Shown in pieces: positions 1,601-52,267 of a stretch of 52,267 bases of DNA. Position 1 is the first letter of the stretch, and every line of letters starts with the position of its first letter. Below the pieces are notes generated by a model. The model worked only from the letters and a program-made list of their open reading frames with translations, was not told the origin of the DNA and searched no databases. The DNA is from Girardia tigrina (taxonomy: Eukaryota), in NCBI GenBank assembly GCA_001938485.1, contig MQRK01240224.1, positions 1 to 52,267 on the forward strand, written 5' to 3'. Position numbers and translations under genes: made by a program.

Positions 1601-3739
1601 TTTATAATAAATGAAATATATTTTACACATAATACAGTGTACTAAAATTATATGTGTTACAAAGGATACCAAGTAGGAAAAAGTAAAACAAAAAATATTA
1701 TTACTATCAAGTAATATAGCTTGACGTTCTGGATCTCTACTTTAAATGAAAAATGTTTGGAGCGAGAATTAGAATGGGAACAATTAATGGCTTGGGAATG
1801 ATTACAATATGACTTCGTTTTCAAATTTATAGAAAAATACAATAAATAATTATCATTGATATCTTTGTTGGATCAGATAGAAGTCTATCAAAAGTGGCCC
1901 ATGATAGTAAAAAACTTTAAGTTAATATAAAAGTTGCTTTTAACAAAGTCCATATAGACTCATGTTTTTTTTACATTAACAACATAATTACTTGATCAAA
2001 TTTTACATTCAAGCCCTAATGAAATTTTCTTTAAAAACATTTTGTACGTTCTTTGCAGATTTCATGGTTTATGAATCTTTCATAACACTGGTATTATAAA
2101 GTAAATACGTTTTTATCTATAAATAATTATGGCTTTTTTTTACCAAAAATAAATTCTTAAAACAAATAATTTTCAAAATAACAAAGTAGTAAGGCAAACT
2201 ATTTAAAATACAGATTTTTGAACATCACAACTTTAAATCATCACTTATTATTTTTTACAAGACAGTTCCAACTGCTTAATATTTACTGACATGTTCTATA
2301 CTCAAGTGATAATGAATATGATATAAAAATTAGAAAATAATAGTGAAGAAACTCGTAGAAAAACAGAGTCAATCTAAAAGTCTTGTTCTATTATACAGTA
2401 AAGATGGAGAACATTTTCTACTTTTGAAGGCCAAACAATAAGAAAATATAAGACAAATACTGCAATTTATGTTTCTGAATTTTCCCCAGAACAAATCGCA
2501 ATAATAAGTGAAGAACAATGCTTTGTGAGCAGCAAAGCGACCATCTTTATTTAAATGAACACTACACTCCACCTAACAGTGTGGAAGGTTGCTCATTGAT
2601 AAACACTGCATGAACCATGTAGTGACAGTTGTTAATATAGTCTCTTATATGTGAAAATGGAAAATTCGTTCGAGATAAAGGCCACTTAATACTGTATTTC
2701 CTCAACCTCGAAGACCGCTGTATTAATATATTAAAATAAAAACCATATTTTTTGGATATTGTCTCTCCATTTTTAATAATATTGACATTGGAAACTAGAT
2801 TCTCTTTTATCAAATTAATAATTATAATTCATATTATTGCGATAAATATCCACACAGAGCAATTTATTTTATATAATTTCTATCGGACTATATCCGCCTT
2901 CGTTTTAATGTTATTATAATTAATTTGTTATGACAATAATTTATTAAGAAAAAGTTCCATAAGAATGAAAAAGAAAAAGCAAGGTCTAATGTTCACAAAA
3001 TGAAAAACGGGAAACTTTTCTTAATGTTCAAATTCGAATTTCGGCAACATTATTTTATCATATAAAGGAAATACCAAATTATATTTACAAAACAAGGTGG
3101 CATAAACTTGAAAAATGCACTTGATATTTAAAAACATAAGTAAAATTAAAATAAATTGAAAAATATCTAAATCTAATTCCTAAAAATGCAAGTCCACATG
3201 TAGCTGCAATTATTTTATCTCTCCTGTAGAATGCAAATTTTAATATCTTTTATTACATGAACATATATTTCTACATAAATAAGTATATGAAAATACTCCT
3301 CAATTCGAAGTAAGAAATATTTACAATTGTTAAAAAATTTCAATTTGCATTAGTGCCAACTTTAGGAAATTATTTTTGTATTTTTGTAACTTGGACTGAA
3401 TTTTAGATTTCGATTTCAGGTAATGTCAGTCCTCTTATCTTTTGCATCTATTCGAATGCCTGGAGAAGCTGTTCATTTAATTTACTTACTTCTAATATCA
3501 TTCATTTTACAAAGTTGTATATAAATATTTATTTTTCTGACAAACGTATTTTAATATGGAAAATCTGTCCGAATTTCTAGTAAAAATTAGAAAAAATTAA
3601 ATCTCTATTGACAAAAAAGGATTACTGGAATTTACCCTAACGCAAAAACATAAATGGATAATCAAAAAAATAATTTAACCACAATCGAATAATATTCAAC
3701 AGCATCTAACGTGAATTTTATACATATTGCTATAAGAGG

Positions 3740-4315
3740 TTAGTTTAAATTTAAGTATCGTCAAAATAGTTTATTATTTTTTTATTTGAAGATTTAAAAG
3801 AAATAAATTAAAAAATTAAAATGTAAAGTAAAAATATGATAAAATAAATACTTATTTAAAATATGCTTACAATAATAAAAATTGATATATTTTATAAAAG
3901 TAATGAAATAAGTTTAAATAAATTTTAAAATAAATAATTAACGGATTAATATTTTAAGAAATAATTTTTTTAATAAAAGGTTTTATTGTAAATTTAAATT
4001 AAATAGTTTTTATGATAAAGTTTCGTAAAAATGTTTGAATTATTCTTCGTAAATTTCGTAAAATTTTCTTAAAAAATGTAAAATTATTTTAAGGTTTAAA
4101 TTTCGTAAAAGTTCGTAAAAATGTAAAATAATTTAAAGTTTAAATTTCGTTAATTTTCAAAATTTAATCGAAAAAATTTATTGAATTAATTTTGGGCGAA
4201 ATAAATGAATTATTAAGAAATTTGTTTAAATATGTGAATTGTTGATATTATTAAATTTTGTGGTGTTAAATTATGACTACAGAATTTAAAAATACTGAAA
4301 GTCGCATAAACGCTA
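3740..4315 (+). repeat. AT-rich MITE-like dispersed repeat (homologue of 30761-31303)
   Basis: Shares AATTTTAAAATAAATAAT.AACGGATTAA, TTTTGG(G)CGAAAT and terminal GCATAAACGCTA with 30761-31303. Internal tandem TTTCGTAAAA units at 4020-4150. Left boundary approximate. Confidence 0.6.
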
Positions 4316-5813
4316 CTTACAATTGCAAAACAATCTTCAATTTGTTTTCATCTTATAATAAAATATAAGTTGAATTAGGTTCAATTTTCAGAGATGAAAT
4401 CGTAACACCAAAAATATATTTATAACACAACTATTATTTTGTAACAAGTTTGTAGGAATTTTTTTTGTTTTTCTTAAATCTCAGACCATTATAAATATTA
4501 TTGAAAAACTTAAATCCGGATAAGAATTTTTCATGTAAAGCGAAATTCATCCATTAAAAATTAAATTTTTAAATGGATGAACTTTGTTTTACATTATAAA
4601 TATTCATATTTTAAAAAATTTAATTCACACTTATCATTTTATAATTTCTTAAACTACCATTTTAGAAATTTAATTTACGACTATTCTTTTACAATTTCTT
4701 TTTATCTTTTTTTTTCTTTTTATCTTTTTGCATATTTTCAATATTTCCCTAATTTACAATTTTCAAAATTTCTGAATTTTACATTTCTTATTTTCGAATA
4801 TTTGAAAATTTTTACAAATTTAGTTATTTTTTTATAATTTACAAATTTAACAAATTTATTTTTATAAAAACAAATACATTTTAAATATTAACAGATTAGG
4901 ATTAACATAAAGTTATTACGTTTAAAACTCCCTTGATCGAGAATTAACTTTTATATGAAATTTCTTGCATGGATTCGAAAATTTACCACTTTATAATTGC
5001 AAAAATAAGTTCACCAATAAACAACATCTTTATTATTAGCGAGACTACTTTTAACTATTACGCAAAATAAAATAAATAAATACTCGGGTGATAATATTTA
5101 AAAATATTACTATAATAAATTAAACATAAGGAAAAGCGAACATATGAATTCGAGATCAAGTAATAAGAAATAGTTTTTTTTAAGGAGAATAGCTAAGTAA
5201 TTTTTTACTTGTAATTTTCAATATTTTTAATGGCAGTAATGGTCACGAACTTCTGAAATCCATAATAGTCGTTTGATAAAATAAAACAAAGAATCAGACG
5301 AATAAGTTATTTTATTGTAGAATTATAAAGATTGAAATTTGTTTTTTTCTTGATTCTATAAGGAAGTGGGTTATAGAGTAGACTTTCATGAATCACTTCT
5401 TTATTTTCATTTTTCTTGTTTTCGAACGAATAAATTTAATATATCGAATGACGTAATCAGAAAAATATTTGCAGCTAAAATAAGCTGATGTCGATAAAAA
5501 TCAAGACGACTTTAAATTAAACAATCATCAAAATACATAAATTATCAATTTAATGATTTTTTATTTTTTAATTTAAGATCTAATTTTTATAATTTAATTA
5601 GCATCTTAATGACGCTATATCGTCAAGATGTTAATTTACATTATAATTAATGTTTTTTTAAATAATAACTAAATAATGTCAAATAAAATAATAATGATGA
5701 TGTATAAATAAAATAGAATAATATTAAATAATACAGGTAAAATAAAAGAATATTGAAATACGATTAGTACTAAATAAGGATAAAAAATAACTTGTTATAA
5801 TAATTATGTAATA

Positions 5814-10232: not shown

Positions 10233-10932
10233 ATAATTTTGTTTTTTAAGAAATCTATTATTGTACATGTTTTGGAAATTCTTCAATTATCATCAATTAT
10301 ATTTGTTACTATTTTTGTTACTATTATATTACTATTTTAATGTTAATTTTTAAAATGGTATTTTTAAAATGGAAAAAAATATTTATTTATTTAATTTAAG
10401 ATATTATTGGATAATAATAAAAAAATGTTTTAAAAATTTTAATTCAAGTTTTGTATACGCTAGTTGCGTTTACATATTCATTTAAAAACTCATCAAGTCA
10501 ACAAAAGCTACAACGATAACTCAGTATCTAAATTTTTTATTGTATTTAAACAATTTTTTTAAATTTTAACATCAACTATTTATTTACATAATTTATTGTT
10601 ATATACAAACTTTCTGATTTGAATTTAGTTTTTGGATAATTTGATTTAGAATATTTTGGTTTCGAATATTTTTGATCAAATTGAATTTTTTGGATATTTT
10701 GATTTCGGATATTTCTGATTACAGAATGAATTAACATTTAATTAATTAATTAATTAAATTAATTTCTCTGCTCCTGCGAGAAAATTAATTCACATGTAGA
10801 TGAAAAAGTGAAGGGTAAATTCGAGAAAGATGTTAAGATTAAAATTTTTTACCTTATTCTGAAAAATTCAAACACCTAAATAATTCTATTCTTAAAGTAA
10901 CAAATAATATTTTAAATTTAAAAATCATTTCA

Positions 10933-11276
10933 CAGTCATTTAAAGTTGAAAATGTTTTGTAATAAATCACCTAATCCTTTGAGTTTGTGTTCGGACGTGG
11001 TTTATCAGTATACATGTAATGGGTGAAATGCCACATTCATTGGAGACTGCCCGTCATCTGAGTCCAAGAACACGCTTATAGAGTGAGTAAGAGTAATATT
11101 GCTGAGCATAGGACAACTTGTAAATGTGATTGGAGTATAAATGATTTCAAAATTCTGGCAAGCATTTAAAACTAACTGGAAGAGTTCCGCGTGAAGCTTT
11201 GTTAATAAGGTCTCGTGACCCTAAAATTAATGTGCAAACGGCACTCTCAACCAATTTGTTTAGAGTTTCCGATTAA
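10933..11276 (+). mobile_element. Penelope-like retroelement 3' fragment (GIY-YIG endonuclease pseudogene)
   Basis: SDVVYQYTCNG*NATFIG, TARHL, QEHAYRVSKSNIAEHRTTCKC, FKILA, REALLIRSRDPKINVQ: the PLE GIY-YIG signature, with frameshifts. Confidence 0.85.
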
Positions 11277-11337
11277 TATTACGTATCCGATTACTTAAGC
11301 ATTAATTTCGTATCAATAAAAAAACTAAAAAATCAGT

Positions 11338-11369
11338 GATCTGAAAATGACGGTAAAACCTTCATTATC
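11338..11369 (+). ncRNA. Degenerate minimal hammerhead ribozyme remnant in the Penelope pseudo-LTR
   Basis: GAT-CTGAAAA-T-GACGG-TAAAA-CCTTC-ATT-ATC aligns to the hammerhead at 37681-37719, with the GAAA core deleted. Lies about 60 nt after the GIY-YIG stop. Confidence 0.5.
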
Positions 11370-11599
11370 ATAAAAATATATATTTTGAAATGACGAATCC
11401 TTTGTTTTATAACAAAAATTACCATTGTTTTATAAAATATTTTCATAAATTCCTTTATTTTCGTGTATTGCATTTTAGACATGTTTTCATTTTGCATTTT
11501 TGATCCAAGTTATTATTCTTTGGATTTAAAATGTGTTTTCAAAATGTTATTCTAATGTATAAGCTTTGCCAGTTACGAAATTTAATCTTGGAACTTTCG

Positions 11600-32475: not shown

Positions 32476-33202
32476 CAGACGTTTTTTCAGATAAATTTAA
32501 AATATTTAACAATAGATTTACCTGACAAAGCATAACTTTGTCACACACTCATAGCATCAGTTCTTTCAGAAATTTTCGATTATAGATTCACCCGTTTTTC
32601 GAGGTGTTTTTCGAAGTATTTGAGAGCTTTTGTGGTAGTCAAGCAATAGATAAGAAATGAAGGAACCTATTTAAGGTAACCTTTTCTGGATTGCAAGTTC
32701 CATGATAATTGCAAAAAAATAGAATTGCTCCAATATTTTAGCAATCATTTCTGATATTTGTAATTTGTTTGAAATATATAATTAAAATTATTGTTTAATG
32801 TTGTTATTTGTTTCATAATTAAAAAAATAACATATTTAAGTTATAGTACATTTTATTCCTAAAAAACATTAATGATTTGCATAATAATACATGTTAGTAT
32901 CGGTGGTCATATCACCGAGGACAGAAGAAAGTTCATTTTAATAATTTGCAATTTTATCAACAATACACGAAATTATATCAGCACGAACAAGTGTGAATAT
33001 CCGGATATCAAAATAATAACTACGGTTAAGATAAATTCCAAATACGAACGGTTCGGGAATTTAAGCGGATGGCTTAAGTAAATAATACGATATTGTCAAA
33101 ACTGTAATCATTTCAGAATCTTTAGATTATTAGGTTTGGAATTATCTTCCATTCTAAATCAAAAAGAAATTAAGACTTGCAAAATTTATTCAAACTACCA
33201 AA

Positions 33203-34500
33203 TTGTGCAAAGATTCTTTTCGAAATTCTAACTTCATATCCAGGCTGCTCAGATAGTTAATCCACCTTAGAAACTGCGATGTAGTGTTCAGCATAAACGT
33301 AATTGCTTTATGGTCGGTACGCAAAGTAAATCGTTTACCATACAGAAAATGTCTAAAATAGTAACAAAAATAATACCTTTCAAGCAATTCTTTTCTTGTA
33401 ACACAATTACCCTTCTCGTGACTATTTATTGATCGAGATCCATAAGCTACAACTCTTTCCTTTCCTTGATCGTCCTTCTGTGCAAACACGGCTCCAATGG
33501 TGTCGAAACTAGCATCCGTATTTAGAATAAAATCTCTTTTCATGTCTGGAAAACACAATATCCGGCTTCTAATTATTGCATTCTTCATCTCTTCGAATGC
33601 TAACTTTAGCTCGCTTGTCCAATTCAGTTTTTATTGCTATTTTGCCCGCATAATTGTTCTAATACTCTAACTTTCTTTGCATACTCTTTTAAAAATTGTC
33701 GATAATAGTTACAAATGCCCAAAAAACTGCGTAAGTTTTTAACACACTTTGGCTTCGTAAACGTCGTTATTGCTTCAATCTTGGACGAGTCCGTTTTTAC
33801 ACCGTCTTCGTTAACTATATATCGTAGGAATTTGAATTCTTGTTTCAATAATTGACATTTTTCTTGGTTCACCCGCAATTCTGCTTTCCTAATATTGTCT
33901 AAAACATGATTGAAAACAATATAGTGTTGCTCCCGATCTTTTGTTTACACCATGATATCATTTAAGTATACAGTGGCACCCTTGATTCCTCCAACTTCCT
34001 TTGTCATCATCTCTAGGAAAGTTCCCGGCGCAGCCGCTATACCAAACGGCATCCGAGTAAAACAAAACTGTCTTTTCTTTGTAGAAAATGCCATTTTTTC
34101 CTGAGATTCTTTGTCCAGTTCAACATGATAATAGGCATTTCCTAGGTTAATCGAGTTTAAATACTTTGCATCCCCTAAAGCATCCAACATCTCATCAACA
34201 TTGGGCATCAGAAAAGCTTGTCTCTCCGTTATTGCATTGAAACGCTTAAAATCCAAACAGATACGAATATCCTTCTTCTCTTTTTTCCACACACAAATTA
34301 ATGGTGTGTTCCAAGGTGAATTTCTCTTCCGAATGATATTATTATCATAAAAAGTGTTTATAGTCTCGATGATTTTTTCTTCGAGATGCATTGGTTGATG
34401 ATAAGGTTTTTAATTAATTGGCTCCTCATTCGTCTTAATATAATGTTTTACTAAGCTGGTACATCCAATATATCATTTTTCAACCATGAATACTTCTGTC
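33203..34500 (-). pseudogene. Gypsy pol pseudogene (RT and RNase H)
   Basis: ORFs 33945-34391, 33624-33878 and 33190-33588 carry RT and RH motifs in consecutive shifted frames; YLDD is degraded to YLND. Confidence 0.92.
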
Positions 34501-34650
34501 TGTTTCTGAATGACCTCTAACAGTTTTGAATCTACTTTACCTATGTAATCTAACACTCTTTTTAATATCTCCCCTGACCTTATCACCCTGCCAAATTTTG
34601 CCTCGATGTTACACACACTTCATGTTCGAGATTGAAATTAAAATTAAAAT

Positions 34651-34679
34651 TTGGAATTGGAATTTAATTCCAATTCCAA
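34651..34679. repeat. Perfect 29-bp palindrome near the edge of the insertion in the Gypsy element
   Basis: TTGGAATTGGAATT-T-AATTCCAATTCCAA. Confidence 0.8.
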
Positions 34680-35689
34680 TGAATTTTATATGTATATTTA
34701 TATAAAAAAAATAACTTTTATAAAGAAAGGAAAATTATTACAAAAAAATTACTTTTGTTGATTGTTAAAAAAANNNNNNNNNNNNNNNNNNTAAAAAATA
34801 TTATATCAAAAATGTTATTTGTTATAATGTGTTAATTGTAATTAGATTTATATAGCAAATAAAAATTATACATGGAAATATCGATTTTTTAATGATTCTA
34901 ATTAAAAGATAAATTATCCATCAGAATATTGCAGAAGAAAAAATTTCAACATGCCTTGGCTTTTAACTATGGAACTTTACGTTAANNNNNNNNNNNNNNN
35001 NNNNNNNNNNNNNNNNNNNNNNNNNNNNNNNNNNNCAAAAATTAATGATAAATGCATTTAAATTGGCAATAGCAAGTCAAGCTTTTTGGAATCTGTTGCA
35101 ATCGGTTGGCAGAGATGGAAAATTGAATTTTAACTGTGATCATCCGAAAGACCTAGAAATAATACTTCGATATGCTCNNNNNNNNGAAAGAAATACGGTC
35201 CTCTTAAGGACCATAATTGAAGATTGTGAACAGGAATTTTGGGGCGCGTTCCTATGGGCCCGAACGTCGCTCAACAAAAATAATTTTGAAGTAAATAATT
35301 TTCCACTTCACGTGATACCCTTGATAAATCAATGTCTTGAGACTCGTTTCTTTGTATGTAATAACCGAAATTTTCATGAATACTGTGCCTCCGATCAGTT
35401 CTGGAACCACACTCTCCACGTCCAAACCCATAGACCTTATTCATCGTTCGCATATCCAGCTCAAATCCGATTCGGTTGGAATTATCTTCTAAGATCAATG
35501 ACATCCGGCTCCCACCAACTCCTCAATTGGTGGAGCCGAGTCGTTTGGATACGGCTTATCGTTTTTTTCTTCATTATCATCAAATGTGCGTTCTTCATCT
35601 TCGTTCATTATGTTAATTTTAAATTTCTGATCATTGTACTGCATTCTCGATCTTCCATTATCGTAAACATTATTCTGTCTGCTAAAGTT

Positions 35690-36559
35690 CATGCCACTGT
35701 TAGATGCCTATTCCGGCTACAATTTTCACAGCGTATCTCTGGACATTGAGTTCGCCTCTGTCTCTTTTTCCTGCACAAGAAACAAACCAATGTTAGGAAA
35801 GTTTCTACTGATGTACCCAGTCTCTTCACAATTCCAATACTGCACAGGTCTTCTTTGTTAGCAATTCCTGCTAAAATGTCCTACTAGATGACATGTATAG
35901 CATTTGGATTGGTTTCACCCTTGAAAGTTGTTTTCTAAGATGAGTCTGATTTACCAATTTTTTAGTTACCTCAGGAGCCCTGTTGTTTTGAACAACATCT
36001 CGATAACTTCTGAAAGTATTGATCCTGCTCTTCTTTTCGTGGTTTATTTCATCGACGAGTGCAACGAATTTAGATATTTCCTTCACACTCTTTAATTTCC
36101 GTAATTTAATTTCATTAACAACATCTTCATCATCAATGCAATGAACATTTAAGCCTTTAGCTCTTCTTCCTCTAGTCTATGCGACAATGCATTTTTTACC
36201 AGGGGATCTACATTTCTGAAAAAAATATATGCCTTATCAGCACCCTTGCGATAACTCAACAGTTTTTCCCAATCCATCGCGGCTAATCTAGGCTTCTGAA
36301 ACGCTAGTCTTAGTCGATACTCAAAATTATCAGCTTTACCAGCTGTGTTCTCATATGCTTCCAAGAGCACTTCATGTATCATAGAGTAAATACATGTTTG
36401 CCATTTCTTTTGATTAATTTCTGCGACTTCAAAATATCTTCTGCAGCGAGAAATAAATTTCTCTAGGTCTTCTCTGATCTGGAACATGTCGGGAATGAGT
36501 CGGTTCGTGATTAAATCCGCTAGCGCAGCCACCATGTTAGATTGGGAATTATCTTCCAT
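35690..36559 (-). pseudogene. Gypsy gag pseudogene with degenerate CCHC knuckles
   Basis: ORFs 36149-36559 and 35871-36086, plus WNCEETG, CFLCRK and CENCSRNRH remnants at about 35700-35850. Confidence 0.75.
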
Positions 36560-37609
36560 TCTAAATAAAAAGAAATTAAGACTTGCAAAATTTATTCAAA
36601 CTACCAAAGGTTAGATTTGTTATTTAAACAAATTTTCTTTTTTTATTTTCTTTTTTTAATTTTATTTTCCAATATTTTTTTTAATTTCGATTACATTTTG
36701 AAATTTTTAATAAACAAAATTTCCTATTTCTGAAAATTAAAAAATTAACAACAACAATCTCTTACACAGATATCGGAAAAAATTTTTAAATTTTCAGATT
36801 AAGAATTGATATTGATTGGTTCCGATTGCATCTAAATTTTCTCTCACCATGATATTTTTTTGTCATGTAATTTCTGCTGAATATTAAAACTAGCTATTGT
36901 TTACAAAAAATTAAATCTTATTTATTTTTAATAAATGATTTTAATTTTTGAGGAACTATATTATTTAAGTTTTATTTTTCTTTGCTAAAACGGTGTTTTG
37001 TTGTTTAATTTTATATAACAAACTAATTTAATTATACTTTTATTTGTCTGTTATTTTTTATTTAGTATTTTGGTAACTTATTTCTTATTATTACTTCAAA
37101 ATTTTCCACTTACTTTTCATTTCCAATAACACATTAAATTATGAATGATGTTGCACTAATCGGCTGCCTATACATTTTTATTTTTACAATTGTTATATGA
37201 AACTTATAAAATGGTGGTCCTAACATATAGATTTTAACCGAGTACGTCTAGGAACACATTAGACGTAAACTAAATTAATTTTAAGAACTCCAAGTTTTAA
37301 GTACTGATAGGTTTTTTAACATTAATCAACAATTAATTTATTTCTAATTTTAATAATAAAAAAATTTCCAAAAAATTGAAAAATTGGTTATTATTATTTT
37401 AAATTACTCATTTAATCTAAATGAACTTTAATAAAAATAAATTCAACTGGAAAGTAATTCATATTATAATCTTTACAGACGTCGTATAAATACAGGTGTA
37501 TTTGATAGAATAATTCTTCCGTAACGAATAAATGAATCGGGGAATAATAAAAAAATAAAATAATAAATATATTTGCAAAGACACGCCATTTGTTAAATTT
37601 ATTTTTTAC

Positions 37610-37648
37610 GACAATTAATTTCGACGGTATAACCGTCATCTTCAGGTC
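37610..37648 (-). ncRNA. Minimal type I hammerhead ribozyme (inverted copy)
   Basis: Minus strand GAC-CTGAAGA-T-GACGG-TTATA-CCGTC-GAAATTAATT-GTC; differs from the plus copy only at the variable core position N7. Confidence 0.75.
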
Positions 37649-37680
37649 TCAAGAAAGTTTAAAATTCATTTCTTTCTTGA

Positions 37681-37719
37681 GACCTGACGATGACGGTTAT
37701 ACCGTCGAAATTAATTGTC
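37681..37719 (+). ncRNA. Minimal type I hammerhead ribozyme
   Basis: GAC (stem I)-CTGACGA-T-GACGG/TTATA/CCGTC (stem II)-GAA-ATTAAT (palindromic stem III)-T (H17)-GTC (stem I'). Confidence 0.75.
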
Positions 37720-37903
37720 ATAAAAAATAAATTTAACAAATGGCGTGTTTTTGTTTTTAAACATAATTTGCCATTATTTTTTAATTTTTTGAATCAATAT
37801 TTGCAAAGTTTTAATTATTAGAGAAATCCCATCAAATAAACTTAACCGTATGTTTTTGTATAAGTTATAATCTTTATCTTCTTTCTGCATACATATCCAT
37901 ACG

Positions 37904-37949
<46 letters not shown>

Positions 37950-38153
37950 NNNNNNNNNNNNNNNNNNNNNNNNNNNNNNNNNNNNNNNNNNNNNNNNNNN
38001 NNNNNNNNNNNNNNNNNNNNNNNNNNNNNNNNNNNNNNNNNACTATCCCCCGTCAATTGTAAATGCGCGCCGAACTCCGAACAGGATGAGGAGCCCTTCT
38101 AAAATAAAAGAACAAAAGTTAAAATTTTAATTAATTTAATTAATAGTACTTAC

Positions 38154-38527
38154 CGTTGTCTCTTTGTAATTAGGTTTAACTGTCTGAAATCTAGACACAG
38201 TCTGATTTCGTCCTTATCTTTTTTCCAAACTCATACTATGGTGTGTTCCATTGTGAATTGCATGTCTTTATTATTCCATTTTCCTCTAGATTTTTGATTG
38301 CTTCCTCAAGTTTGTCCTCTAAGTGTACTGGCTGTCTTCTCGGTTTTATGTTTATAGGTCCCCTGTTGTTTCTATTATGTGTCGTAACAAGTTTGTACAG
38401 CCGATAATCCCAGTCATTTGCCATGAATATGCCTTGATATTGGTGAATTATTTCTTCTAGGGCTTTATCGTTTCACGTATCTATCATTTTCAATGCTTCT
38501 TTTCCTCTTTCTTCGTCTGTGATTCCT
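38154..38527 (-). pseudogene. Second Ty3/Gypsy RT N-terminal fragment
   Basis: GPINIKPRRQPVHLEDKLEEAIKNLEENGIIKTCNSQWNTP, then VWKKDKDEIRLCLDFRQLNLITK; paralogous to 34230-34430. Confidence 0.85.
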
Positions 38528-38528
38528 T

Positions 38529-39791
38529 AAATTATCTTCAAAATAACTTATTAAATGTACTAGTTGTGGTGGATAATCTGCAACAAGTTCGTTAAAAGCA
38601 TCAATTACCTCATTTATTAGAATAAAAGCTCATGCAAGGATCATCTTTATTGATTTACAGATATTCTCGTTCTGCACATATGACATTTTTAATCCTTCAT
38701 CCTGTATTTTTCTCCAAAGCGATTTTCCTAAATGAAAGTAACAGCCATAAATTAATGTTTCTAAAAATCCTTCTGTTATGGCATTTTTAGAAGCTATTTT
38801 AAAATCTATTTGAATACTTATAGGAGAAAGTTCGTGCATTAAAAATTTGATTTGTCTTCACATTTCACGATAAGTTGATTGTTGCTTATTTGGAAGTAGA
38901 ACAAATACACAGGATAATAAATTGTTTCTTATTAAAACATGTATTGGGAAAACTTGATAAGACAATCTTTGGGATACTTTGAATGTTCCATCAAACATCC
39001 AGTGCTCATATTCATGCAACCGTTTAAAAAATTGATTATTACTGAAAATAATAATCCTGTTATAATCCTTTTAACATTGACTACTATCATATAATAAAAA
39101 TGGTCGTTGATTTATAGTAAATTTCAAATTTAGAGGAATCACTAATTCTCTGAAACTGGTAGGGACTAAAGGACAATTGAAGTTAGCTTTTCTCTTCTGT
39201 CGAATGATCTCACGAAAATTCGCTACAGAACTTAAAGCTGATGAAATTTCCTGATTAACTCCGGCCAATGCATTTGGTACAAACATGTTCTATTTTTCAA
39301 ACTCCCACTTCCATTGGATTTGGAGGATGTGTATGGGTACCAGTAATTACCGGTGGCTCTAGCTGTTCTCGAAATTGAAAACATCTAATTAGGGGACCCT
39401 TACATCCCACATTTATACATCTCCAATTAACTGTCCTTGATTGAATTTTATCTCTTTTATATAAGAATCCTTCAAAATTGATCAATTCTCCTCCTTTTCT
39501 CGATTTAAGAAATTCCATATTAATAGTAACTAAAATATATTTAAATTTGCAAAATACATTTTTAAAAATACTTTTTTTGAGATAAAATATTTAAATTTAT
39601 AACACTTATAACTAATAGTCATTTTTAACAAAAACTTTAATATTAAAATACTTTTTTATATTTTGAATATTTAAATTAAGAAAATCTCTATTAAATATTA
39701 AAATATTTTTTGCAAAATACTTTTTATATTTTGAATATGTCGCTATTTTGTATGTGTCGCTATTTTGAAGTTGCTATTTTGACTGTATTCC

Positions 39792-50552: not shown

Positions 50553-51787
50553 TTAGGTTGTCCTAAAAGTTCCCGGTCAAAAATGAAAATACAATTTTTT
50601 TTCAATTTCTTTTTGGCATTATTTATTTGATATTGATATATATCTATTTATTCATGGCATTATATGGACTGTGAGATTACAAACCTTGAAATCCGTGTGT
50701 TGCTGCGTCACTATTGGAAGAAAGGCTTGATAACACGATATGCTGCCAAGGCAATTTGCAAAGTTGAAGGTACGCAAACGGTTGAAAAAAGTACGGCAAT
50801 TGATTGGTTCAACCGTTTCAATAAAGGCAACTTTGACTTGAATGACAGTCCTCGTTCTGGACGACCAACAAAATTCGATAACGATGACTTGCAAGTAGAG
50901 CTGTACATGAAGCCTTTGTCAAGATCTCGCGATTTGACATTTAAGCTATGAGTTGTAAAGTCATGCATAAATGGGCATTTCAAACAGCTCGACCTTATGC
51001 ACAAAAAACCACGTCAAGATCCCCACGAACTCAACAAAGCACAAGCTAATAAAAGAGTCCAAATTTGTGGACCACTGCTACAGAATCCACGAGATAACCG
51101 CTTTTGGAAACAAATTATGACGTCGGATGAGAAGTGGGTCTACTTTGTTAACCACAACCAAGACAAGCGATGAGTTCCACCGGGTGAAGCAACGCCGTCA
51201 GTTCCAAAACAAGATCCATTTGGCTTGAAAATCATGTTGTGCGTCTGGTGGAACTTTGAAGGAGTCGTGCACTTTGAGTTGGTTCAGAACGGCAAGGCCA
51301 TTGATGCAGAACTCTATTGTCAACAGCTGGACCGTGTCTACGAGAGGCTCAAGGAGAAGTACTTTGCCTTAATCAACCGAAAACGTGCACTGCTTCAGCA
51401 AGACAATGCCAAACCGCATACCGCCAAGAAGACCATGGGTAAGTTCCAAGAGTTGGATGGAGTCGAGATACTGCTGCATCCTGCTTACAGCCCTGATTGC
51501 TTGCCCTCCATCCGACTATGGCCTCTTTCGATCCATGCAACACTTCTTGAAAGGCCACAGATTCAAATTTGATTCGATGAAGTTGAACAAGCATGTCAAG
51601 AATTCTTCAATTTGAAGCATCCGGAATGGTACTTTGACCAGATCCCAAAGTTTTCAGATCGTTGACAGAAAGTAGTCAAAAACGATGGACTATACTTTGA
51701 AGATTAATTGTTATTTATTTAAAATAAATTCTAGCACTAAAAAATTGTATTTTTCATTCTCTACCGGGAACTTTTAGGACAACCTAA
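50553..51787 (+). mobile_element. Full-length, inactivated mariner (DD34D) element
   Basis: Perfect 25-bp TIRs TTAGGTTGTCCTAAAAGTTCCCGGT, TA on both flanks, 1235 bp long. Confidence 0.96.
50664..51707 (+). pseudogene. Mariner transposase pseudogene
   Basis: PRSGRP, PHEL, TSDEKW, KIMLCVWW, QQDNAKPH, HPAYSPD..PSDY; stops and a frameshift. Confidence 0.93.
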
Positions 51788-52078: not shown

Positions 52079-52267
52079 CTTCATCAAGCAATGCAAAATT
52101 TCTCGATGTCATGTTGAAACCTTTAATTCCAAAAGGTTTTGGGTGTCTTGATATTTTTTAATTTGTGGATTTTATTTCAAAATTCGATATTAATAATAAT
52201 GATGAAATTATATATATATATATATATAATATTATTATTAATTATAATATATATATATATATATATA

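Follow-up and report, generated by a model that had tools for sequence, protein, structure and literature searches.

Within a window of 52,267 nucleotides of Girardia tigrina DNA (contig MQRK01240224.1; "the window" denotes the whole stretch that was analysed), two hammerhead ribozyme motifs lie back to back on opposite strands of a near-perfect inverted repeat, which raises the question of how the pair arose and whether it has any function where it stands. The original prediction had described an inverted pair of Penelope-like pseudo-LTR (pLTR) hammerheads with no ORF beside it, and this was borne out by family alignment and by a window that holds no ORF of this Penelope family. The feature is a back-to-back pair of cut-short Penelope ribozyme-bearing ends, an ordinary and already described outcome.

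Boundaries of the insertion and anatomy of its hammerheads

The inverted arms occupy positions 37581-37657 (minus strand) and 37672-37748 (plus strand) and are 77 bp long with two mismatches, at 37688 (N7; C in the right arm, A in the left) and at 37720. Alignment of the arms, together with a descriptor scan of the window that found these two motifs only (the mean in block shuffles was 0.21, n = 100), upheld the predicted pair of 77-bp arms with a hammerhead core in each. The predicted extent, 37581-37748, was right for the arms but too short for the feature; the whole insertion spans 37581-37796 (216 bp), with the hairpin as its core, and is flanked by a 12-bp target-site duplication. The left copy of this duplication (ATATTTGCAAAG; 37569-37580, plus strand) and the right copy (37797-37808, plus strand) are exact direct repeats that abut the ends of the element at offset 0, and the same 12 bp are present once in an empty allele from another sample. 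That allele is carried by a contig of run X2 (207 nt, depth 18) that aligns to 37797-37898; the 30 letters in front of this stretch are the same as those at 37539-37568, and depth in this run is also 18 over about 37490-37540. Run X2 bears the same organism label as run X1, the best-matching run. A single contig from one run represents the empty allele, and over about 100 nt it shows 4 differing letters and 1 gap. No contig or read among those listed extends across the filled allele or across the junction at its centre; therefore, the interior of the insertion rests on the assembly. Nothing from runs X1, X8 and X9 aligned to the right flank, and no reads of X21, a raw-read run labelled as another organism, aligned at all; these absences carry no weight.

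The left arm (37581-37657, minus strand) is a tailless, 5'-truncated pLTR fragment that runs from -18 to +59 relative to the ATG of the element's ORF when aligned to copies L007 and L155. The right arm (37658-37796, plus strand) is likewise a 5'-truncated pLTR fragment, running from -32 to +107, and it alone carries the "tail" of Penelope-like elements (PLEs), about 35 nt at 37762-37796 (plus strand; left boundary approximate), as placed by the 3'-end clusters and one-armed tails of the paired copies described below. The two fragments meet head to head at 37657/37658 in a blunt junction with a gap of 0, no inserted bases, no palindrome and no microhomology, and this junction has a single match in the 1.43-Gb assembly when up to one mismatch is allowed. 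The 14 nt between the arms (37658-37671) had been proposed as a spacer from which a transcript could start and so expose the ribozyme; however, they are the right copy's own truncated pLTR sequence, found at the same position in other copies, and in runs X1 and X2 the loose ends that precede 37658 are normal pLTR continuation. Both arms also stop short of the TATA-like motif TATATAAG, which lies at -44 to -37 from the ATG in longer copies and which we infer to be a pLTR promoter element.

The ATG at 37690-37692 (plus strand) is made of core A9, an extra U and G10.1, and is the likely start of the element's ORF (MTVIPSKLIV...); in L007 and L154 the frame that it opens continues as the N-terminus of the PLE. 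The locus had been called a ribozyme-only footprint, a description that fails because the arms keep the first 19 (left) and the first 35 (right) codons of this ORF as well as the RT-start tail. The AATAAA reported after each ribozyme is indeed present; however, it is part of the ORF codons K-N-K, and the printed copies run past it to discrete end points that carry no poly(A) run.

The left motif (37610-37648, minus strand) carries the rare variant N7 = A, found in 16 of 1,389 genomic copies, and the right motif (37681-37719, plus strand) carries N7 = C, as does the majority of the family. Each comprises GAC, CUGANGA, stem II (GACGG/CCGUC), GAAA, the palindrome AUUAAU, H17 = U and GUC, with a stem I of 3 bp and a stem II of 5 bp, or of 6 bp when a U-A pair closes a 3-nt loop. 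The extra U (U37691) lies between A9 and G10.1, and the pair G10.1-C11.1 is G37692-C37706. Cleavage is predicted after U37716 in the right motif (plus strand), where the original prediction had placed it (AUU triplet) in agreement with the motif anatomy, and after U37613 in the left motif (minus strand); the cut falls after nt 27 of the ORF. The type I core, the extra nucleotide that separates positions 9 and 10.1, the G10.1-C11.1 pair and the palindromic stem III region are those of the minimal hammerheads of PLE pLTRs described in PMC4209133, which also reports many solo motifs from truncated PLEs. Stems I and II of the Schistosoma families in that account measure 4-5 and 7-8 bp, and its dual motifs lie about 100-700 bp apart on opposite strands, whereas the motifs here are 32 bp apart. 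The other hammerheads of the fetched loci have AUAUAU, ACUAGU or ACGCGU as their palindrome, and one copy with ACGAGU is not palindromic. Between families the palindrome thus changes while the core, the extra U and the AUG remain, and conservation of the fold is visible only at that level.

The search with hammerhead models that had been suggested came back empty, with no Rfam hammerhead family in the window at gathering score or at E ≤ 10, and the minimal form therefore appears to lie outside the Rfam hammerhead models. The only Rfam matches on the hairpin were to miRNA-precursor models, below their gathering scores, and arose because the sequence forms a hairpin; a miRNA identity was accordingly rejected and these matches were treated as hairpin artefacts.

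The Penelope-like donor element

The exact 32-nt motif, with N7 left free, has 1,389 matches in the genome (682 + 707), against 0 for the reversed control, and a DNA search of the same genome gave at least 86 matches (40 scored of 103 candidates). The anticipated linkage of such copies to PLE frames was also found. In other copies the C-terminal end of a GIY-YIG frame lies upstream of the motif, and in L155 a pLTR fragment in inverted orientation is followed by an N-terminal frame, then by a frame of 603 aa (2967-4775) and last by the same hammerhead (at 4850) with its tail, the ORF having one break upstream. The 603-aa frame contains DKG, YVDD, VY-C-x2-C-YIG and EALYI. L155 thus combines an RT (DKG, YVDD) with a C-terminal GIY-YIG domain with CCHH, followed by the pLTR hammerhead, as in EN+ Penelope-like elements. 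Pfam RVT_1 matched the L155 frame at E 1e-6, 0.6 bit under the cut-off, and the Pfam GIY-YIG match, in L163, was weak (E 0.01, below the cut-off).

In the translation, read by eye, the linker that joins RT to EN is without a CX2-5CxxC zinc finger. The absence of this finger is part of the definition of Penelope/Poseidon given in PMC8557442, and because of it the linker points to a donor of Penelope/Poseidon type. No named PLE reference was present among the 120 homologues listed, which bore generic names or none, and a PDB sequence search with the ORF gave weak matches to retron and group II intron RTs only (best E 0.002).

Internally deleted derivatives, in which the N-terminal part of the ORF is joined to the GIY-YIG end, were seen in L007/L030, L031, L032, L033 and L042 and are possibly a non-autonomous subfamily; the join lies at about -230 to -237 from the 3' ATG, and 14 of 147 mapped 5' ends lie at -211 to -230. 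Distant PLE fragments of other families (67-77% DNA identity) occur in the window at about 10849-11267, 47576-47741 and 52093-52211; the first two (the first within 10849-11370) are followed by apparent decayed hammerhead cores.

Paired copies and the route of insertion

This architecture has been published (PMC4209133, PMC3846280, PMC8557442), and the inverted pLTR with a one-sided tail and a target duplication is described in PMC3846280 and PMC8557442 (the latter in the scheme of its Fig. 2 legend) and repeated in PMC8969392 and PMC6765202. Head-to-head truncated pLTRs, a one-ended tail and a target duplication are all found at the present locus, which is a new instance of this insertion type and likely an inert stump. 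A close likeness is to Pen2/Pen2a of Adineta vaga as described in PMC3846280, in which the pLTRs are inverted head to head, one of them bears a tail of 30-40 bp, the duplication encloses the whole unit, the pLTR overlaps the first ORF codons and an empty site is present on another allele. Unlike in Adineta, both copies here are stumps with the first ORF codons only, and the duplication is 12 bp rather than the 8-10 bp reported there. With its exact duplication, empty allele and blunt junction, the locus is a clean polymorphic example of PLE integration, the cycle of which is called undefined in the cited papers.

We consider it highly probable that the 216 bp stem from one insertion of a Penelope/Poseidon-type element, 5'-truncated in both arms and flanked by a 12-bp target duplication, which was likely written by reverse transcription from both nicked target strands. 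The GIY-YIG domain would make staggered nicks 12 bp apart, and from each 3'-OH reverse transcription would be primed at its own internal start, at about +107 for one strand and at +59 to +70 for the other, on template RNA that, for both strands, would come from the same donor subfamily. Both cDNAs would stop early, at 139 and 77 nt, and the truncated cDNAs would be joined head to head by end-joining, with the hammerheads carried along as passengers from the donor; the copy has likely been decaying neutrally since. The nicking, the starts on two strands, the early stops and the end-joining are drawn from the family pattern and, by analogy, from the in vitro behaviour of PAc, the Poseidon protein of Anolis carolinensis (Frangieh et al. 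2024, PMC11167929). As reported there, PAc nicks and extends both strands, uses two internal RT starts that bound the tail, and inserts without need of ribozyme cleavage, elements with a cleavage-dead ribozyme being inserted too. As in PAc, the ORF here starts at stem II, with the cut after nt 27 (about 26 nt downstream in PAc), the tail lies between two internal RT starts in the first ~120 nt of the ORF, and the targets are AT-rich. Different from PAc are the outer start (near +105 to +107 here, 111-118 in PAc) and an extra class of ends near +40-47. The literature search gave, by title and abstract, no report on twin priming for Penelope-like elements, although one may still be published.

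Paired copies were surveyed in loci L001-L153, with judged duplicates dropped, and comprised 80 single-copy loci and 44 neighbouring pairs; because similarity or pattern decided which loci were taken, and six were taken for showing pairs, the pair frequency is not a genome-wide estimate. Divergent copies within 3.5 kb made up 37 of the 44 pairs, with 5 pairs direct and 2 further apart, and flanks were clean in 33 of the 37. A duplication of at least 11 bp at both ends was found in 17 of these 33 pairs, compared to 9 of 1,056 mismatched-flank controls; the remaining 16 had none of that length, and 2 of the 17 positives (L028 and L098) lie in microsatellites. Exactly one arm bore the tail in 28 of the 33 clean-flank pairs, and the tail arm was the longer one in 12 of 15 pairs with no N and a short junction (p 0.035). 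The 3' ends fall into groups near +40-47, +63-72 and +95-113, and the left arm of the present locus, which ends at +59, misses the main class (+63-72) by a few bases. With L116 left out for its whole-flank inverted duplication, arm divergence was 7.1% within pairs and 10.2% between pairs, and of the 22 pairs whose length allowed scoring, 20 had both arms in the same indel-defined subfamily (Fisher p 0.0003). This pattern fits priming on the two target strands at separate internal starts but does not set it apart from fold-back self-priming or a later central deletion.

An origin in the same element and with the same duplication, but with the inversion made by fold-back self-priming or by a longer inverted insertion that later lost its centre, is unlikely, although it is the strongest competitor. 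Self-priming from palindromes at inverted junctions, on an antisense template, is argued for in PMC3846280, and some pairs have junction overlaps that would suit it, such as the 6 nt in L098. The junction in the window, however, is blunt and has neither palindrome nor microhomology, its outer ends fall at or close to separate RT-start classes, an outcome not readily expected from a single fold-back copy, and short added AT-rich bases at several other junctions are what end-joining would leave. As to a later loss of the centre, long palindromes are prone to central deletion, which counts in its favour.

Within the survey, a fixed or capped 5' end for the short arms was rejected, since 5' ends are spread (147 clean-flank copies of 184 mapped); 9 copies with 5' ends at -11 to -21 had no shared position, and the two junctions inspected showed microhomology or a T-run. 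L116 (G000:C183380) has a tail on both arms and mutually inverted flanks, and is an inverted duplication or an assembly artefact. L005 and L010 have different flanks and a near-identical inner junction (left to about -107/-111, right from about -416), which reflects either a hotspot or recopying of an inverted unit.

Core-base variation, folding and function at the locus

The N7 mismatch had been singled out as the only difference inside the ribozymes and as falling at a freely variable position; comparison with the family does not support any meaning in it. Against 1,337 unchanged copies, single-site variants numbered 52 at N7 (A 16, T 35, G 1), 34 at C3, 43 at G8 and 56 at G12, counts that do not differ significantly (chi-square p 0.10; N7 vs two other CpG sites, p 0.80). 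Copies decay alike at free and essential positions; N7 was therefore rejected as a selected neutral site, and neither an "intact" hammerhead nor a lone N7 change in such a copy is a sign of selection. An origin of the arms from two different templates was also rejected, the N7 A/C discordance seen in many pairs being ascertainment by our own query: N7 = A in 16 of 1,389 copies is close to C3-to-A (12; p 0.57), and the arms share a subfamily. The C3 variant was confined to one arm in all 6 pairs fetched for it, and of 4 pairs of this sort with an N7 = T variant, one (L094) carried it on both arms. Two pairs have ribozyme changes common to both arms, namely G12-to-T in L033 (G000:C234216) and three changes, in stem II, palindrome and stem I, in L032 (G000:C231434); G12-to-T is not amplified genome-wide (8 of 56 G12 variants). 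Either copying went on from donors whose ribozyme was disabled, which the in vitro data for PAc allow, or the arms were later homogenised.

The insertion is predicted to fold into a 77-bp hairpin (-117.1 kcal/mol, z -22), and the claim that a read-through RNA would bury the ribozyme is in line with this predicted duplex. The motifs lie on opposite strands and, therefore, a transcript would hold one sense ribozyme, with no dimerisation in cis. Because of the opposite strands, the likely lack of a pLTR promoter and the mutual pairing in read-through RNA, the hammerheads would be inactive at this locus.

Exaptation of the locus, whether as a hairpin RNA whose read-through dsRNA feeds small RNAs or as a switch in which a central start frees the ribozyme, is improbable. 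The strength of the predicted duplex and the antisense small RNAs reported from Penelope copies in Adineta (PMC3846280) speak for it; however, the X2 contig lacks the insertion, neither arm reaches the TATA-like motif, and essential bases mutate as often as N7 in family copies. Runs guessed or recorded as RNA contained at most 0.20 of the sequence words, which speaks neither for nor against expression. Furthermore, the insertion sits between Ty3/gypsy and FLYWCH/Mutator-like remnants, and no host gene was found beside it by homology (a search that did not include gene prediction).

Folding of the single arm bears on a separate proposal about the donor RNA, to which we give little weight. In the right arm alone (N7 = C), the core is predicted to pair with the cut-site strand (P about 0.8) and stem I hardly forms (P 0.04); in the arm with N7 = A, the core/cut-site helix is lost (P 0) and stem I rises to P 0.28. 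N7 would then not be free in this family, and the donor RNA might be a switch: with the majority C at N7, UGACGAU would pair with AUUGUC(A/G), and the resulting 7-bp helix would mask core, cut site and start codon together, so that the RNA stays off as long as neither a partner RNA nor the element's own protein refolds it. If so, the switch would couple ribozyme cleavage both to translation and to which RNA serves as RT template, and copies ending near the cut site would be its products. Counted in its favour are the modelled loss of the helix with N7 = A and the 4 of 177 copies that end at +25 to +27. However, other hammerhead families here have A or U at N7, and most of them are likewise predicted to form little stem I as monomers, so the helix may be an accident specific to this family. 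Fig. S2C of PMC11167929, which deals with RNA folding, may already show an alternative fold. The four copies (L058, L067, L080 and L106), which stop at the predicted cut (after +27) or just short of it and continue into unrelated AT-rich sequence, hint weakly that RNA can serve as template once cleaved; nearby ends were seen in L137 (+23), L035 (+28), L130 (+29) and L122 (+34).

Propagation as a unit, by a palindromic mini-element or retrozyme, is very improbable and largely refuted. The insertion has its own duplication, and the junction positions of L005 and L010 are similar, though not identical; however, the junction occurs once in 1.43 Gb, on which ground an amplifying palindromic unit was rejected, and inner ends vary from pair to pair. 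Animal non-LTR retrozymes (bioRxiv 10.64898/2026.07.22.740005) are likewise non-coding, derived from PLE pLTRs and equipped with a type I hammerhead; unlike them, as described in that preprint, the present locus is one inverted pair with a unique junction, whereas retrozymes are direct tandem arrays (at least 2 hammerhead units) thought to replicate as circles. An assembly artefact (a fold-back chimera or a mis-filled gap) is about as improbable, for although the assembly is fragmented (255,254 contigs), an N gap lies 150 bp away and no listed contig covers the junction, the exact 12-bp duplication matches an independent empty allele, the arms have different ends and two mismatches, and 16 other pairs show the same layout with different duplications.

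The neighbourhood contains remnants of other elements. A broken Ty3/gypsy remnant with RVT_1 and RNase H matches lies at 33190-36595 (minus strand), and a FLYWCH/Mutator-like remnant lies beside a short gypsy-like piece at 38050-39590 (minus strand). Further along, a protein-kinase fragment and mariner-like transposase fragments occur at 44216-44515 (minus strand), 46477-47208 (minus strand) and 50637-51572 (plus strand), and a tRNA match (Rfam RF00005, 46 bits, E 1e-6) was found at 45435-45539 (minus strand).
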